32,000 bases of DNA from Candidatus Methanophagaceae archaeon GoMg2 (GCA_013180585.1 QBUM01000250.1:1-32000), one strand, 5' to 3'; numbered from the stretch's first letter, positions 3,910 to 11,017 are shown. Notes: generated from the sequence alone by a model not told the origin. Numbers and translations are program-made.

Positions 3910-4734
3910 ATGGCAGACACACCGCAGATCAGAGATACAATGCAGGCTACGGAAAAGATAGGCTTAGCTTTTGCTTTATTGACTGCGATAATCATGCTTG
4001 GCTGGTCGCTTTATTCGTTAGTTGTGGATTTAATATTACAATTTGATATATACGGCATCGTGATTGATTCATTTTTCTTAGGAGTGGGCATCTTTTTGGG
4101 TTATTTCGCCATGCGAATGTACAAGAAAGCGACATATTACGAAAGTTTGATGGATACAGCTTTTGACCAAGGGATATATGGGCGATTGGAACCGGTACTG
4201 AGGAAAGTAGCGGAGACGCAGGTGGAGATGGAAACTTTAGAAGGTCGTTTGGGCAAGATTGACCATATGGTTCAGACGGTAATAGACGAGCAGGTGAAGA
4301 CGGAAGGCAGTCCTGGTGTAGAGGTGGTAGGAAAATCTATCGCTCCCGGGACTTCCACGAGCTTTGCGACAAAAGTTATCCTTATGGTTATGGTATCCAT
4401 GTCGGGCTTTATATTTATGATAGAGACCTCGTTTGGAATGGCTCATCTCGCAACTTTAGTCTTTTTCGTGGCGTGGTGGCTGCTCATATCATCGGAATTT
4501 AAAGTTTTTGATAAAAATACCGCATGGGTAGTGCTCTTTCTGCCCATTATTTTGGTTCCTTTTAGCTTCATGTTTCTTGGTATTGCAGGGATATTTGCAA
4601 TGAATAATTTGCTTGGCATTTTTTATGCTTGCCTTGCGCTATATGCCCTCTTATACTACTCGTGGGCGGCATATGAAACGAAAGGGACGGTGCCTTTCAA
4701 CCTCGACTTTATACGTCACATCAAGCGCAAGTGA
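3910..4734 (+). CDS. Polytopic membrane protein of unknown function: 2 TM, a coiled-coil-like loop, then ~4 TM
   Basis: Track ORF. Hydrophobic segments include IGLAFALLTAIIMLGW, VIDSFFLGVGIFLGYFAM, VILMVMVSMSGFIFMI and LVFFVAWWLLI. It lies 61 nt upstream of the cytochrome gene. Confidence 0.6.
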   Translation: MADTPQIRDTMQATEKIGLAFALLTAIIMLGWSLYSLVVDLILQFDIYGIVIDSFFLGVGIFLGYFAMRMYKKATYYESLMDTAFDQGIYGRLEPVLRKVAETQVEMETLEGRLGKIDHMVQTVIDEQVKTEGSPGVEVVGKSIAPGTSTSFATKVILMVMVSMSGFIFMIETSFGMAHLATLVFFVAWWLLISSEFKVFDKNTAWVVLFLPIILVPFSFMFLGIAGIFAMNNLLGIFYACLALYALLYYSWAAYETKGTVPFNLDFIRHIKRK

Positions 4735-4795: not shown

Positions 4796-5347
4796 ATGAA
4801 CAAGAAATTAGTAGGAGCTATTATAGCAGTAGTATTGATAGGGGTACTAATGGCAGGCTGTGTGGAGCAACCCGCACCTGAGGAGGCACACACACCAGAA
4901 CCGGTGACTACACCAAAACCGACACCAAAGCTGACACCTGTGCCAACACCAGCAATGAAACCGACAGTGGAAATGTCTGCAGGTGGTTGTGAGATGTGTC
5001 ACAAGGCGGAAATTACCGCTGATTTGAGTGCTCACGTAGAGGGCGGACAGTCATGTTTTGGTACATCACAGCTTAGTCCATGCCATAGTGCGGAGAAATA
5101 CGGAGGGGCTGATGCTGACGTGCATACCGTTCATCCTCCTGAGGTGACGTGCAGGCAATGTCACATGGTAGAAGGGAATTTAGTAATTCCAGAAACAGGG
5201 AAATACTCAAGTTGTGAAGCCTGCCATGGATATCCAAATCCGCTTGATCCAAGTAATGGACGTCTTGTAGAGATACACCTGGATAGAGGCAGAGACTGCA
5301 CAGTTTGCCACGTTGGAGAGATTTCGCAGATACATGGGTTGTCATAG
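4796..5347 (+). CDS. Lipoprotein-type multihaem c-type cytochrome with 4 CxxCH and one C-x8-CH
   Basis: MNKKLVGAIIAVVLIGVLMAGC forms a lipobox, followed by a Pro/Thr-rich linker. Haem motifs are CEMCH, CRQCH, CEACH and CTVCH. An aggag sequence lies upstream. The part of track ORF 4613.. before this Met overlaps the previous gene. Confidence 0.85.
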   Translation: MNKKLVGAIIAVVLIGVLMAGCVEQPAPEEAHTPEPVTTPKPTPKLTPVPTPAMKPTVEMSAGGCEMCHKAEITADLSAHVEGGQSCFGTSQLSPCHSAEKYGGADADVHTVHPPEVTCRQCHMVEGNLVIPETGKYSSCEACHGYPNPLDPSNGRLVEIHLDRGRDCTVCHVGEISQIHGLS

Positions 5348-5403
5348 GACAGCCCACTTTTTTTCTCTCCCCCCCTCTTTTTTATTTATTGCTCCGAGTA
5401 TTA

Positions 5404-5646
5404 TAACCACAAGATTTTCACGAGAAACCTTTTCTTTGAACAGCTTTGCTGTTCCATTGCTTTACCTACAACTTTTTTACCTCGGTAAAAACCTTGACTA
5501 AAAACCTTCTATTGTTTTTCTTTTAGCACAAACCTTTCTTAAAAAGAAAGCTTTACCAAAGAAACAATGGTTTTCTTTTTCTAAAAAAGAAAAAGTGTTG
5601 TGTTAATCTCGTGAAATCTCGTGGTTTTACCCCTGCTATACAAATA
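5404..5646 (-). mobile_element. Family-A MITE-like element, long variant (A7)
   Basis: Ends are taaccacaagattttcacgagaa ... cttgtgttaatctcgtgaaatctcgtggttttacccctgctatacaaata. These match family-A termini; the internal ~180 bp is unrelated to other copies. Confidence 0.5.
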
Positions 5647-5706
5647 TCAATTTATTACTAAAATGGCTACAAGAAGGCATAATATTCAACTAAAATTAAT
5701 TATTGA

Positions 5707-5771
5707 CACAGATTAACGCTGATTAACGCAGAAGAAATCAAATCTGTGTAAATCCGTGTAAATCTGCGTCC
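5707..5771 (-). mobile_element. Family-C element, short form with the two arms only
   Basis: cacagattaacgctgattaacgcagaagaaatcaaatctgtgtaaatccgtgtaaatctgcgtcc. Its arms are the reverse complements of those of the 2188-2322 copy. Confidence 0.5.
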
Positions 5772-5797
5772 TAAATAGATAGAAGTTATACTTTATA

Positions 5798-5902
5798 GAG
5801 GCTGTCCCACAATTGATTTTGATCATAAAAATATCGCTTCTTTTGGGTTTAAAGCTCTATTTGTCTTTCTTTTTCTGGCATTTTGGGATTGTTGGACAAC
5901 CT
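5798..5902 (+). mobile_element. Family-D MITE-like element, copy 2
   Basis: gaggctgtcccacaattgatttt ... gggattgttggacaacct. Collinear with the reverse complement of 3676-3782. Confidence 0.65.
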
Positions 5903-5953
5903 ATATATACAATAAAAAGGAAAAGAAAGTTTGTATGTAGTCTTATTATAAAT

Positions 5954-7183
5954 TCAAACGACGAAAAAGGAAACTACCTTAGTTAAGCTTATTTGGTGGC
6001 AAATCAGGTCGAAAACAGAAGAAAGTAGCACATACTCAGTTGAAAGTTCCTTTCTGTTGCTGGCAAAAAGCCCCCACATTAACTCCCCCCTGCGAGGACT
6101 TTCTTGTGTCTCCTCTTGGGTTGATGCGGTACTACGTTCCGCTGATTTTTGTATTATGTCCCCGATAGTATCGGAAGTGGGTGATGATGGCGAGGGTTCC
6201 GGTGTTTCCTCAATGTCTTCTTCTCCCTCTGCTTGGACAAAGAATATTTTCACTATGTCGGTACCAGGAATAGTAATTTTATAAGTGCCGGGAAGTTCCT
6301 TCGACACCAAGAAATGGAGTGTTTCCGTGTTGCCACTGCCCACAGTAACCGCAGCTTCGGCTTCTTTTTTGCCGTTTATTACCAGTGCTATCCTTTCCGT
6401 CCCCTTTTCCCCCTCGTTCTTTACCGCTACCGAAATTGCAACGGGCTCGTTGGGTTTAACCTTAAATTGATCTATTTGCATGTCAGACACCACGAATTTA
6501 GACCCTTCAATTACCTCGCCTTTCGGCGGCTGCTCAGGCGATTCTTCTTTTAGCTCCTCAGGACTGCGCACGTAGAATTGTAGTTTTGCTACTTCCTCCA
6601 ACGAATCGTCAATTGACTTTACTACCCCCACATCCTCCAGGTCATCTCTATCTCCTCCGCACCCGGTTTCAAGGAGGTTTGTCATGTCATCATATGTATC
6701 ATCGTCATCATCATCAGCTACGGTACCAAAAAACGTCTTAAGAGTCTCTTTGTCGGAATCTACTTTTCGGTTTATATACGATATTCTCGCCTTGTCCAAG
6801 CGATTATATGAATATATAGCAATCTCATACCTGCCATACAGCCACCAGGATGGGATTGGCTTTGTGTACATCACGTTCACATCGTCCTCGTAAGTTCTGC
6901 GATTTACACCCATGTGGTCTATCACAACCACATGCCCTCGAGGGTCTTTTATAACATAGAACAAATCAACGATCGTGTAACCCGCGTAATTTACGTTATA
7001 CAGCTCCGTATACACTTTGATGGTATCGCCATGAGTATAACAACCATCCATGGTTGCATATCCGGTCCATGCACCTATATCGGAAACAACCTCCGCTTTC
7101 ATCGCGTCTACTGTAGTAGCAGAAAAGAGTAACAACAATAACAACGCAAAGATGGCCAAGGTGCTTCTTCCCCCTCCCTTCAT
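5954..7183 (-). CDS. Secreted acidic protein with a CARDB-like Ig domain
   Basis: Signal peptide MKGGGRSTLAIFALLLLLLFSATTVDA; poly-Asp DDDDDDTYDD; VKPNEPVAISVAVKNEGEKGTERIALVINGKK..TETLHFLVSKELPGTYKITI resembles CARDB. The C-terminus has no clear anchor. Confidence 0.7.
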   Translation of the reverse strand: MKGGGRSTLAIFALLLLLLFSATTVDAMKAEVVSDIGAWTGYATMDGCYTHGDTIKVYTELYNVNYAGYTIVDLFYVIKDPRGHVVVIDHMGVNRRTYEDDVNVMYTKPIPSWWLYGRYEIAIYSYNRLDKARISYINRKVDSDKETLKTFFGTVADDDDDDTYDDMTNLLETGCGGDRDDLEDVGVVKSIDDSLEEVAKLQFYVRSPEELKEESPEQPPKGEVIEGSKFVVSDMQIDQFKVKPNEPVAISVAVKNEGEKGTERIALVINGKKEAEAAVTVGSGNTETLHFLVSKELPGTYKITIPGTDIVKIFFVQAEGEEDIEETPEPSPSSPTSDTIGDIIQKSAERSTASTQEETQESPRRGELMWGLFASNRKELSTEYVLLSSVFDLICHQISLTKVVSFFVV

Positions 7184-7284
7184 TTCTTCACTCCATAATC
7201 TATTTCATCCAGCCCTACATAAAATTATACATTTTAATTGATTAAAAACGAATATATTTTATTTACCTCAAAGCAATATATCGA

Positions 7285-7938
7285 ATGATGAAAATCAAAT
7301 TATTTGCGTTATTTGTCATGGTATTCCTCGTTGCCGCCGCACCTTCCCCTTGTGCGGGGGATGGGGAGAGCGAGAGCGAGGTGGTTCCGCCGAATCCTAT
7401 GGGGTTCATAGGGTCGTGGCATCCCGTGCCCGAGTGTGGGCAGTGTCATGTCACGCTTCTATCCGATGGTGAGTTGCGCGCAAAGCTCGGGTCTTGCAAG
7501 TGTCATAAGGAAGCATACACCAGTGGGGGGAATATAGATATGGGGAAGATAAGAACGGTGGCGCATGGTTCAAAGATATGCGTGGATTGTCACATAGGCA
7601 GTGGAATGCTAACCAGTACGGGGGAAATACCCTGTGATGACATCCATCGTGTCCACGATGTGGGCGTAGATTGTCAGGCATGCCATGGAGAGGAGGATAA
7701 CCCGCTAATACCGGAAACAGGGAATTGCAATTTCTGCCATCTCGGGGACGGTCATTCTATTCACGGCCAGAAAACGGGCGATCTCTGCGTTGCCTGCCAT
7801 GGCGCGTTTGGATCAGAATACAAGGAAGCGGGTTACCAGATGGTAGAGGGAGTCCCGGTAGTGATAGAAGAAGAAGTGGTGAAACATCCCACAATCTTAA
7901 ATACATTGAAAGCGTTGATAAGGTTCGTAATCGAATAA
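7285..7938 (+). CDS. Secreted multihaem c-type cytochrome with 5 CxxCH and one C-x-CH
   Basis: Signal peptide MMKIKLFALFVMVFLVAAAPSPCAG. Haem motifs are CGQCH, CVDCH, CQACH, CNFCH and CVACH. Paralogous to 4796-5347 (shared LIPETG block). Confidence 0.85.
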   Translation: MMKIKLFALFVMVFLVAAAPSPCAGDGESESEVVPPNPMGFIGSWHPVPECGQCHVTLLSDGELRAKLGSCKCHKEAYTSGGNIDMGKIRTVAHGSKICVDCHIGSGMLTSTGEIPCDDIHRVHDVGVDCQACHGEEDNPLIPETGNCNFCHLGDGHSIHGQKTGDLCVACHGAFGSEYKEAGYQMVEGVPVVIEEEVVKHPTILNTLKALIRFVIE

Positions 7939-7954
7939 AAGAGTGAGTAAACAG

Positions 7955-8386
7955 ATGAGAAAAGGAACTATTGTTGCAGTTGTTACCATTAACATTTTGG
8001 TTATAACCATCCTTACGAGTTCATGTATAAACTTAGAAGACGTGCCGGTTATAAACATAAAAACTGAGGTTACTTTGATAGATGAAAAGACGACAATTGA
8101 AATTGTCAGTGCGGAACAAGATGAGACCAGTATCTTGAAAAGTCCGAAGGGTACTTCTGTCGGTTTTCCAAGCGTGGATGCAAAGGCGCTAATCAATTAT
8201 GGACATGGTGGAGTCAGCTACTGGGCGGCAAAGGAATACACGGGGAGTGGCACGTATGAGCTTGTACTCGGCTTTGAGAAGGAGAGGGTGCCAAAAAAGG
8301 ACGATATAGTGAAGGTACTCGTGCGGGTAATAGATGGAAATGGCAAGACGATAGCGAGTACTACGCGAGTGATAATCTGGGAATAA
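7955..8386 (+). CDS. Small exported or lipoprotein-like protein of unknown function in the cytochrome operon
   Basis: MRKGTIVAVVTINILVITILTSSC is an anchor or lipobox-like sequence. The track ORF starts at GTG 7943. Tightly packed between the cytochrome and ccmF. It has no CcmE haem-binding motif. Confidence 0.55.
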   Translation: MRKGTIVAVVTINILVITILTSSCINLEDVPVINIKTEVTLIDEKTTIEIVSAEQDETSILKSPKGTSVGFPSVDAKALINYGHGGVSYWAAKEYTGSGTYELVLGFEKERVPKKDDIVKVLVRVIDGNGKTIASTTRVIIWE

Positions 8387-8389
8387 AAA

Positions 8390-10345
8390 ATGGAGACGGG
8401 GGAAATTTTTATAGTTTTAGCTTGCTTCTTACTGCTATCCGATTTTATTCTGTTGTTAATGGCAAAGCAAGAAGGGAGTAAGAAACGTGACCTCGCTTTT
8501 ATCGCTTCTGCCATCGCTTGCGTGCTGATAGTAGCCTCTTACTTCCGGCTCACAATGGCGTTCGTGAATGATAATTTTTGGATAAGTGAAGTTTACACGT
8601 ACAGTTCATCGGGCTTGTCGCTCATGTATAAGGTGGGCGACCCCTGGATAGGGAGTAGCGGGTCAATGCTCTTTATAATTTTCGTCTTTGCACTTGTATA
8701 TTTTACGTATCGGTTTAAAGGATTGGGAAAAGAGAGCGAGTTCCGTACAACTACCTACAAAATATTGGACGTCTTCCTCATCTTCCTCCTTCTCGTCACC
8801 CTTCTGAAGAGCCCTTTTGAACTTCTACCCGTGAATCCCCCGGATGGGGGGGGTCTAAATCCGTTGCTACAAACGTTATGGGTGCTTATTCATCCGCCTG
8901 TGGTCTTTTTGGGCTACGTATTTGTCTTCTTCGCATTCGCGCTGACGCTGGCGGGGATGATAACAAGGGAAAGCGAAAGGCAAGAAGTAAGAGCGACCTT
9001 AAAACGTTTCTTGTACACGGCATGGCTGTTCTTAGCACTTGGAATTGCGCTTGGTGGTTGGTGGTCTTATGAAGTACTGGGTTGGGGTGGATACTGGGCT
9101 TGGGACCCGGTGGAGACGGCGTCCTTACTTCCCTGGCTTGCTCTCACCGCGTACTTTCACCTGCCGGTAAGAAGCAAAGATTTGGCGAAGGAATTCACGC
9201 TCATGATTACGTTTTTCATGATTATCTTCGCCTCCGCTCTGACGCGAGGGGGGCTATTGGAATCGGTTCATGCGTTTGGGGAATCCCCAGTCGGGCCAGC
9301 ACTTATGTTATTCGCTTTTGGCGTCTTTTTATACTTCGTATATCTTGCGAAAAAAGCGAAAAAACCGCTTTATGCTTTTGAGATTGATTCTTCTTCACTT
9401 CACTCTGTCTCTATCTTTGTCGCTTACTGGTCGCTGATGATTCTGTTAATCATATGCTTTTTGGGCGATGCCGTGCCGATAATCGGTGGCTTTTTCCGCG
9501 ATGCGTCCATGACCACAAGCGCAGAATTTTATAACCGGTGGTGCTTCCCCTTTACACTCGCATTCGTAGCTGCGTTAATGGGCTGCAATCTCGGTCTGAA
9601 GCTGAAGAATTTTGCCTGGCTAATCACAGTGATATTGGGCATTGGAGTTGTGTTAGCACTGCTTGGACTACCCACGCCAAATCCACTTGCAAACTTCGGG
9701 CTCCCGCTCCTACTCACGGCGGGGTTTGCTATCGCGCATAGTTTTGTGCGTTCATTACAAAAGAAACAGCAATCATCACACGTGTTGGGCAAAACCCTCG
9801 TGCATCTCTCCGTCATAATTATCTTAATAGGCGTATTTATCAGCGCCACCGCGGAAACGGACAGTGGCAACATTCTCGCAAAACCCAACTCTGTTATTGA
9901 TACGCAGGGCGTGAAGATAGAATTAAATGATTTCGCAGTACACCCTGGTATAGGTAGCGTTTACCCCAGGACAGGGCATTTATTCACAGTCCCGGAATAT
10001 TCCGCTCTGAAAATGGACGCTACTATAGAGGATGGCGGGCGTGTCCATAATGAAATCCTGGAGCTGTACTACTATGCAAACTGGGGTGTGGTGTCCGAGC
10101 CTTTGATTATTACCTCTCTGTCCGGCGACATATACGTGTTCATGCAACATACAAACTCCAGTTATAGTTCCTTACGTTACGCCCTTATGGGCGGGATAGT
10201 TCAGCCAGAAGATTTTATCATCAATGTGAAGCGGGTCCCCCTGATATGGCTTGTTTGGCTGGGGATAATATTACAGGGATTGGGTATGACTATATTACTA
10301 TACGGTGAACTCAGGAAAACAGGAGCGAACTACAGCAAAAAATAA
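8390..10345 (+). CDS. ccmF: Cytochrome c maturation haem lyase CcmF
   Basis: 651 aa and polytopic. ALGGWWSYEVLGWGGYWAWDPVETASLLPWL is the CcmF-type WWD haem-handling motif. Confidence 0.85.
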   Translation: METGEIFIVLACFLLLSDFILLLMAKQEGSKKRDLAFIASAIACVLIVASYFRLTMAFVNDNFWISEVYTYSSSGLSLMYKVGDPWIGSSGSMLFIIFVFALVYFTYRFKGLGKESEFRTTTYKILDVFLIFLLLVTLLKSPFELLPVNPPDGGGLNPLLQTLWVLIHPPVVFLGYVFVFFAFALTLAGMITRESERQEVRATLKRFLYTAWLFLALGIALGGWWSYEVLGWGGYWAWDPVETASLLPWLALTAYFHLPVRSKDLAKEFTLMITFFMIIFASALTRGGLLESVHAFGESPVGPALMLFAFGVFLYFVYLAKKAKKPLYAFEIDSSSLHSVSIFVAYWSLMILLIICFLGDAVPIIGGFFRDASMTTSAEFYNRWCFPFTLAFVAALMGCNLGLKLKNFAWLITVILGIGVVLALLGLPTPNPLANFGLPLLLTAGFAIAHSFVRSLQKKQQSSHVLGKTLVHLSVIIILIGVFISATAETDSGNILAKPNSVIDTQGVKIELNDFAVHPGIGSVYPRTGHLFTVPEYSALKMDATIEDGGRVHNEILELYYYANWGVVSEPLIITSLSGDIYVFMQHTNSSYSSLRYALMGGIVQPEDFIINVKRVPLIWLVWLGIILQGLGMTILLYGELRKTGANYSKK

Positions 10346-10372: not shown

Positions 10373-11017
10373 TTAATGTGTTTTCTCCGGCGGATGGCAG
10401 ACATCACAGGTTTCTTCTTTATTAACGTTTACATCGTGGTCGTTGTGACAGGCAACACATTCATAACCCTCATAACTCGGACTCTCGTAGCCTTTGTACT
10501 CCCCAACCGGGTGCTCGGTGTGCAGAATTAGAGGCACATTCTCTCTAATCCCATCGTGGCACTCAACACACGAAATATCAGTACCTGTAATCACTTCCGG
10601 CATCTCAACATTGCGTTCCTCATGGCATTCCATACACCATTCGCTCTTTGGTGATGCAGGCGGTTTCTCTTCTATGTGATGTGCATGCTCCTCGAGTGCT
10701 TCGTTCATGCTCTTTCCTTCCATCATCCCTCCAGCTATCGCTTCAGCATGATGCGTGGCATGACCCATATACATGAACATTTCATCGACTATTTCTTCGT
10801 GCGAGTGATGGCAATCGTGACAATCTACGCCCTTATGCGCGGACACTTCCAAAGAGTCGTAAAAGGGCTGCATTTCATGACAGTTCGAAGCACAACTCTC
10901 TGGCTTCTCCATCTCATGCATCATTATAGGCATCATAATTGCCGCGCCACCGATAACTCCAACGGTAACCAGTACGACCAGCGCAATAATCACCTTCTCA
11001 CCTGTTTCCATACTCAA
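10373..11017 (-). CDS. Membrane-anchored hexahaem cytochrome, NapC/NirT/NrfH-like at the N-terminus
   Basis: An N-terminal TM (VIIALVVLVTVGVIGGAAIMM) is followed by CASNCHEMQPFYDSLEVSAHKGVDCHDCHH (NapC/NrfH pattern CxxCHEM...H...CxDCH). Further motifs are CMECH, CVECH, CVACH and CDVCH. SD aggagg lies upstream. Confidence 0.8.
   Translation of the reverse strand: MSMETGEKVIIALVVLVTVGVIGGAAIMMPIMMHEMEKPESCASNCHEMQPFYDSLEVSAHKGVDCHDCHHSHEEIVDEMFMYMGHATHHAEAIAGGMMEGKSMNEALEEHAHHIEEKPPASPKSEWCMECHEERNVEMPEVITGTDISCVECHDGIRENVPLILHTEHPVGEYKGYESPSYEGYECVACHNDHDVNVNKEETCDVCHPPEKTH

Follow-up and report, generated by a model that had tools for sequence, protein, structure and literature searches.

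We report that two paralogous multihaem c-type cytochromes, encoded in a 32,000-nucleotide stretch of DNA from Candidatus Methanophagaceae archaeon GoMg2 (GCA_013180585.1, QBUM01000250.1:1-32000; the whole stretch is termed the window here, and is contig C112 of the assembly), each carry one motif with abnormal spacing between the two cysteines beside a series of canonical CxxCH motifs. In the first cytochrome (cyt1) this is an expanded Cx8CH and in the second (cyt2) a contracted CxCH. On comparative grounds both are very probably true haem c sites, and each protein would then probably hold one haem more than its CxxCH count. We consider it likely that these are ordinary haem c sites which have drifted in spacing, and that they are matured by a general archaeal System I with a single CcmF, whose gene lies shortly downstream of cyt2. 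The host genome is a 2.19-Mb assembly in 251 contigs, estimated to be 79% complete, and the close homologues of the genes studied here all come from assemblies of the ANME-1 (anaerobic methanotrophic archaea, group 1)/Methanophagales lineage. The features on which the argument turns are the following:

4796..5347, + strand: cyt1, 183 amino acids (aa), secreted with a lipobox-type N-terminus, a Pro/Thr-rich linker, four CxxCH motifs and one expanded site
5054..5086, + strand: CFGTSQLSPCH, the expanded Cx8CH at the predicted second haem site of cyt1, by translation
7285..7938, + strand: cyt2, 217 aa, c3/c7-like, secreted, five CxxCH motifs and one CKCH, with a conserved C-terminal amphipathic helix
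7495..7506, + strand: CKCH, the contracted predicted second haem site of cyt2, by translation

Translation thus places both motifs exactly where an earlier reading of this DNA (the original prediction) had located them.

Conservation of the contracted site in cyt2

The motifs of cyt2 follow one another in the order CGQCH, CKCH, CVDCH, CQACH, CNFCH and CVACH behind a signal peptide that is visible in the sequence, and two class III c3/c7 Pfam models score above their cut-offs (PF14522, 29.0 bits against 24.8; PF02085, 27.5 bits against 22.9). An alignment of 37 orthologues sharing 53-97% identity revealed that Cys71, Cys73 and His74 are invariant (37/37), with K, N, R, E, Q, D or V at the position between the cysteines. 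The protein has 12 invariant histidines in this set, six belonging to the motifs and six lying elsewhere (His46, 94, 121, 124, 157 and 160). A survey of 25 species-level ANME-1 loci, drawn from GTDB genomes, found CxCH in every one.

Beyond the orthologues, a profile search against 1.8 billion representatives yielded 63 matches at E ≤ 0.001. Thirty of these went into a wide alignment of 33 sequences, the other three being the window protein and two orthologues from ANME-1; identity in it reaches down to about 25%. The column of the odd site is occupied by CxCH in 21/33 of the sequences and by canonical CxxCH in the other 12/33; its upstream cysteine is at least 90% conserved, and the other five CxxCH motifs and the non-motif histidines are in place. 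Members with CxCH include one from an ANME-2 archaeon, and those with CxxCH include proteins of Geoglobus and Methanoperedenaceae. In five remote members His124 is replaced by methionine, which is the other common axial ligand of haem. A weak profile match (E 0.012) lays the N-terminal part of cyt2 on cytochrome c3, with the CxCH falling over the Cx4CH of 2cy3.

Conservation of the expanded site in cyt1

The motif order of cyt1 is CEMCH, Cx8CH, CRQCH, CEACH and CTVCH, and its relationship to the c3/c7 class is borderline at the level of Pfam models (PF14537, 25.2 bits with a cut-off of 25; PF14522, 23.1 bits with a cut-off of 24.8). Across 34-35 homologues Cys96 and His97 are invariant and the upstream cysteine of the odd site is never missing. 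The distance between the two cysteines is variable, being 7 or 8 residues in the subfamily to which the window protein belongs (subfamily A) and 5, 7, 11 or 12 in subfamily B. Four remote homologues have a plain CxxCH at this second site, and its first cysteine aligns over the first cysteine of Cx8CH. Ten histidines of cyt1 are conserved, namely the five of the motifs and five others (80, 110, 113, 161 and 180).

The two odd sites occupy different haem positions

The paralogy of cyt1 and cyt2, which the original prediction had proposed, is borne out both by BLASTP (E 1e-7 over 37 residues) and by profile-profile comparison with hhalign (probability 97-98%, E 2e-10 to 2e-14). The same prediction had aligned the two odd motifs as a single site interrupted by an insertion or deletion, and on this point the comparison gives a different answer, in that hhalign pairs each of them with a canonical CxxCH. 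In the alignment of the broad family profiles (100 columns, probability 97.3%, high per-column confidence) the CKCH of cyt2 falls on the CEMCH of cyt1, and the CVDCH of cyt2 falls on the Cx8CH of cyt1, with the first cysteines matched, the Cys-His pairs matched and six extra residues in cyt1. The non-motif histidines are paired as well, His94 of cyt2 with His80 of cyt1 and His121/124 of cyt2 with His110/113 of cyt1, and the last three motifs of the two proteins match in order. Local hhalign comparison of narrower alignments agrees on the pairing of Cx8CH. A Viterbi run without realignment on the narrow profiles joined the first cysteine of CKCH to that of Cx8CH and then jumped, and it was discounted as a hybrid path. 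Since the broad profiles gave a clear path, they settle the N-terminal course that the narrow alignments had left ambiguous.

Given this pairing, cyt1 corresponds to cyt2 minus the N-terminal haem. By these alignments the odd sites of the two proteins are not homologous and lie at different haem positions, each being the counterpart of an ordinary CxxCH in the paralogue. The shared E.Y..GG flank, on which the idea of a single aligned site had in part been based, is also not general, as the cyt1 orthologues of subfamily B, about half of the total, lack it.

Evidence for haem attachment at the odd sites

The conservation of the motif residues, the canonical counterparts in homologues and the number of available ligands together make it very probable that Cx8CH and CxCH are genuine haem c sites. 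The counts of non-motif histidines (six in cyt2 and five in cyt1) agree with one bis-ligated haem for each motif only if the odd sites are counted in. Thus cyt2 is a probable hexahaem protein and cyt1 a probable pentahaem, bis-His protein. Atypical haem attachment had been among the possibilities raised originally, with an orthologue alignment suggested as its test, and that alignment retained both cysteines and the histidine in both families.

Two other interpretations of the conserved residues were weighed. A cluster of cysteines and histidine might conceivably bind Zn or Fe, and the elements could accordingly be metal sites devoid of haem, or a disulfide with a free histidine that ligates a neighbouring haem. 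However, the same column holds a canonical CxxCH in the 12 wide-family members of cyt2 and the four remote homologues of cyt1 noted above, and the conserved distal ligands are as many as would be needed if every motif, the odd ones among them, held a haem. Moreover, in a nanowire homologue of the same organism that also has a CxCH (see below), the loss of the second haem would leave a broken haem chain in comparison with its solved relative. We therefore regard attachment of no haem at all as very improbable.

The second interpretation is that haem is held through one thioether bond only, to the cysteine beside the histidine, leaving the upstream cysteine free, in a disulfide, or with a structural or redox role. 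Single-cysteine attachment does occur in nature, as in the F/AxxCH motif of Euglenozoa, and the upstream cysteine of cyt1 shifts between subfamilies with a spacing ranging from 5 to 12, which suggests a loose geometric constraint. Yet this cysteine is invariant in the cyt2 orthologues, nearly so in the wide family and always present in cyt1, and it aligns with the first cysteine of the canonical CxxCH in homologues. Furthermore, the contracted CKCH has been reported to function in haem binding in a tetrahaem cytochrome of Kuenenia stuttgartiensis (Ferousi et al. 2019, J Biol Chem 294:16953; via PMC7096707 and PMC11492766), a report that also overtakes the original view of CxCH as not being an established haem motif. 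Attachment by a single thioether is hence unlikely, and attachment through both cysteines, with the adjacent histidine as the proximal ligand and a conserved distal histidine opposite to it, would remain the better account of both sites.

A single CcmF would serve the cytochromes of the host

Downstream of cyt2 the window contains the following features:

7955..8386, + strand (alternative GTG start at 7943): membrane-anchored beta-sandwich protein, as judged from its AlphaFold2 (AF2) fold, between cyt2 and ccmF
8390..10345, + strand: CcmF, System I haem lyase, PF01578 at 103.9 bits (cut-off 29.9), WWD motif WGGYWAWDP
10373..11017, - strand, probable ATG at 11011: NapC/NirT/NrfH-type membrane-anchored cytochrome, PF03264 at 42.9 bits (cut-off 24.1), five CxxCH motifs and one Cx3CH
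10877..10894, - strand: CASNCH followed by E-M, the Cx3CH at the predicted first haem site of the NapC-like protein, by translation

The identification of CcmF is clear from its PF01578 score, and the C-terminal domain model PF16327 matches below its cut-off (23.7 against 28.7 bits) over profile positions 44-318 of 323. The NrfE-type models TIGR03145 (213 bits) and TIGR00353 (199 bits) both remain far below their cut-offs. As in the original prediction, no ccm gene other than ccmF was found in the window. Elsewhere in the host genome CcmA, CcmC and CcmE are encoded on contig C68 and CcmB on contig C14. CcmE, 122 aa in length, ends in CASKYE, that is, it has the Cys-type CxxxY motif. Neither a CcsA nor, within the 79% of the genome represented, a CcmH/NrfF (PF03918) was found. 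In addition, a 513-aa open reading frame (ORF) of the host genome, at C178:2688-2930 on the - strand (locus L008), contains a domain with weak similarity to CcmE, which at 27 bits barely exceeds the Pfam cut-off.

The original prediction had seen in the adjacency of ccmF and cyt2 a dedicated lyase, comparable to NrfE or CcsA, that non-CxxCH sites would need. Several observations are in line with such a role. The cyt2 stop (7938), the small ORF (start at GTG 7943 or ATG 7955, end at 8386) and the ccmF ATG (8390) follow one another with gaps of a few nucleotides, just as had been stated, and in the species loci these genes lie a few nucleotides apart or overlap. The order cyt2, small gene, ccmF recurs in 21-22 of the 25 species loci, and most of these have the NapC-like gene next after ccmF, on the other strand; the small gene itself lies between the other two in 22/25. 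Each of the three cytochromes around ccmF carries one odd motif, and specialised CcmF paralogues have been proposed by Chadwick et al. for MHC-B of ANME-2 (PMC9012536).

Against this stands, above all, copy number. The window's gene is the only one of CcmF size with a PF01578 domain in the host genome, the other member of this family being the single CcmC on C68, and the further ccmF copies presupposed by the original prediction were not found. Yet a crude scan of the genome for ORFs with at least two CxxCH returned 11 ORFs; all of these look like c-type cytochromes except one on contig C209, with two CxxCH and a ferredoxin-like sequence, and the cytochromes, about 10 ORFs with canonical sites, would depend on this one CcmF. 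The same holds for ANME-1 in general, as 43 of 60 sampled genomes of the ANME-1 family have CcmF, nearly always as one full-length copy, with CcmC accounting for the weak second matches. The genomic association is also separable in both directions. In genera g2, g7 and g13 the ccmF gene sits beside the NapC-like gene although cyt2 and the small gene are both absent, whereas cyt2 with its CxCH is unlinked to ccmF in loci L082, L087 and L095, and the nanowire homologue with CxCH is encoded on another contig. Being the sole copy, on which the other cytochromes depend, and being kept in genera that have no cyt2, the window's CcmF is a general haem lyase and is not motif-specific. The reading as a dedicated lyase is largely refuted by copy number, and we consider it decidedly improbable. 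We also considered whether the protein is of the NrfE type, and rejected this candidate given one CcmF, no CxxCK substrate (there is no CxxCK in any multihaem ORF of the genome scan), no NrfF/G or CcmH found, and the low scores of the NrfE-type models.

The explanation that we favour, drift of ordinary sites under a general System I, can be laid out as follows. The two proteins would be small secreted multihaem c cytochromes of the extracytoplasmic electron-transfer chain of ANME-1. The second site of cyt2 may have lost one residue to become CxCH, and the second site of cyt1 may have gained a loop, giving Cx8CH in this organism and Cx5 to Cx12 in orthologues. Haem would be bound covalently through two thioether bonds at either site, and maturation would proceed by way of the archaeal-type components CcmA, CcmC and CcmE from C68, CcmB from C14 and the CcmF of the window, with no CcmH detected. 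This CcmF would serve the odd sites as well as roughly 10 other cytochrome ORFs, and the order of cyt2, beta-sandwich gene, ccmF and NapC-like gene would represent a conserved neighbourhood for electron transfer and maturation, not a sign of lyase specificity.

Several points weigh against this explanation. The upstream cysteine of cyt1 subfamily B lies at a different alignment position from that of subfamily A, and the first thioether at this site could thus be less constrained than is normal. The Kuenenia precedent is matured by System II, whereas the host of cyt2 is an archaeon with System I. A second, partial CcmF-like ORF is present in the ANME-1 genomes G039 (on C37 and C133) and G049, although these ORFs could stem from duplication, from the splitting of a gene or from faulty assembly; and as the host genome is 79% complete, a second CcmF could conceivably lie in the part that is missing. 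The AF2 model of cyt2, built from the 37 orthologues, has a predicted local distance difference test (pLDDT) score of 43 and is unusable, and the geometry of the odd site therefore cannot be checked from it. Finally, we infer haem occupancy at the odd sites from comparative sequence evidence. The partial CcmF-like ORFs of G049 are arranged in tandem (C269:4020-5267 and 6507-8495).

Other non-canonical motifs in the same organism

The phenomenon is not confined to cyt1 and cyt2, as one non-canonical site is found in five of the about ten c-type cytochrome ORFs of the host genome. The NapC-like cytochrome, which also matches the NrfH model TIGR03153 at 45 bits, below its cut-off, has a Cx3CH at its first site. 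This Cx3CH followed by E-M is preserved in 14/14 detected orthologues, in a paralogue on contig C20 (+ strand, ORF from about 1476) and in genera g13 and g7. When the Cx3CH is counted, the NapC-like cytochromes would be six-haem proteins.

The second case is a tetrahaem protein of the same genome (C194:219-911, + strand, locus L009) that matches PDB 8e5g with E 2e-44 over 206 residues. We take 8e5g to be the extracellular cytochrome nanowire (ECN) of Archaeoglobus veneficus. It is named as an archaeal ECN in PMC13748539. The four haem motifs are in the same order in the two proteins, but the second motif is CDCH in the C194 protein and CxxCH both in 8e5g and in a tandem paralogue (L009:995-1543), with the one-residue gap of the BLASTP alignment falling inside it. 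CxCH is kept in 13 orthologues of the C194 protein from several ANME-1 genera (x = D, N, L or G), as against CxxCH in 23 paralogues.

Comparison with known systems and implications

Expanded haem motifs of up to CX17CH are known, and the Ccm system of E. coli is said, in work attributed to Allen and colleagues in 2009, to mature CXnCH with n = 2-6. The structure of Geobacter OmcZ shows haem bound at a CX14CH (PMC13748539). The CX15CH of MccA, the CX11CH and CX17CH motifs, the CX14CH of OmcZ and the CX3-4CH of cytochrome c3 resemble the cyt1 site in keeping the two cysteines and the histidine around an inserted loop. In the cyt1 family, by contrast, the spacing is variable, with the values 5, 7, 8, 11 and 12 among orthologues, and remote homologues carry the canonical CxxCH. 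MccA of Wolinella needs a dedicated lyase of the CcsA type, in contrast to the host genome, in which no dedicated lyase paralogue was found. NrfE, the lyase of the NrfEFG system for the CxxCK of NrfA, and the window's CcmF are members of one superfamily (CcmF/NrfE).

The Kuenenia motif is the closest parallel to cyt2, with the same CKCH tetrapeptide in a small multihaem c cytochrome that has canonical sites besides and conserves the motif in its orthologues. It comes from a bacterial anammox protein, whereas the ANME-1 cases, identified by sequence comparison, fall in two unrelated archaeal cytochrome families. The host shares CcmA, CcmB, CcmC, CcmE and CcmF, the CASKY form of CcmE and the failure to find CcmH with the archaeal variant of System I (Allen et al. 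2006; Kletzin et al. 2015, PMC4429474; Chadwick et al. 2022, PMC9012536), and so matches the Ccm pattern published for ANME (PMC9012536). Published haem counts for ANME-1 cytochromes take in CxxCH only, for instance those of the comparative study of ANME in which that pattern is described (PMC9012536), and in the searchable literature no paper was found that links ANME-1 with a contracted CxCH motif. Thus CxCH and CxnCH are already known as kinds of haem motif. What appears to be new, and is a modest point, is that CxCH recurs among archaea whose System I has a single CcmF. The CxCH of the ANME-1 nanowire homologue and the Cx3CH of the NapC-like cytochrome likewise appear to be new.

If the odd sites do bind haem, cyt1, cyt2, the quinol-side NapC-like cytochrome and the nanowire homologue would each gain one haem relative to their annotation, and models of the haem chains leading from methane oxidation to the partner bacteria would change, to the extent that these proteins take part in electron export. 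A CcmH-less archaeal System I with a single CcmF would then handle contracted as well as strongly expanded motifs (spacing 1 to 12), which bears on the question of what sets lyase specificity. A practical rule for annotating ANME genomes would be to scan them for CxnCH, letting n run from 1 to about 15.

The gene neighbourhood and the beta-sandwich protein

The small ORF between cyt2 and ccmF probably starts at ATG 7955, the start preferred originally, since its orthologues begin with MKK or MRE-K. It had been described as a small lipoprotein. However, the lipobox-like cysteine is confined to the window's genus, and in most orthologues the N-terminus is simply a membrane helix. The AF2 model is of good quality (pLDDT 89.7) and consists of this helix and a seven-stranded beta-sandwich, which resembles known folds weakly (E about 3e-3), among them C2 domains and the N-terminal domain found in peptidases of Bacteroides; no PDB entry was matched by sequence. 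Its distribution by genus follows cyt2 and not CcmF, suggesting that it may be a partner or anchor of cyt2. A role as a CcmE- or CcmH-like chaperone was rejected in view of the beta-sandwich fold, the co-occurrence with cyt2 and the lack of any conserved Cys, His or Met in the orthologues. At locus L070 (G022:C198:2883-3251), in another ANME-1 genome, an ORF of more than 1100 aa was observed to contain a domain with 52% identity to the small protein, so the fold also serves as a module of a large surface protein.

A more far-reaching proposal would combine three elements: that the single CcmF of this CcmH-less System I has the broadest natural range known for a lyase (n = 1, 2, 3 and 5-12); that CxCH, recurring in two unrelated families, is under selection and may tune the potential or the packing of the second haem; and that the beta-sandwich protein may be a new assembly or anchoring factor specific to cyt2. 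We regard this combination as possible but doubtful.

The 3' ends of ccmF and the NapC-like gene face each other, and the two genes are adjacent in nearly all loci. No other part of the locus is as stable as this pair. In loci L096-L098 (genera g13 and g7), where both cyt2 and the small gene are absent, the position upstream of ccmF is taken by a radical-SAM-like gene of about 380 aa. Two further genes of the window flank cyt1:

3910..4734, + strand: polytopic membrane protein, 274 aa, conserved upstream neighbour of cyt1
5954..7183, - strand: secreted acidic protein, 409 aa, with a weak CARDB-like domain (PF07705, E 0.0086, below cut-off)

The second of these bears on the operon that had been proposed for both cytochromes and ccmF, which would hold for cyt2 with ccmF but does not extend to cyt1, cut off as it is by this minus-strand gene. 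Minus-strand genes of 366-380 aa likewise lie between cyt1 and cyt2 in loci L003, L004 and L040. The 274-aa membrane protein gave no Pfam or NCBIfam match, and a gene of 259-271 aa is found at its position before cyt1 in L003 and L040. In some ANME-1 loci a 746-aa surface protein accompanies the CARDB-like gene.

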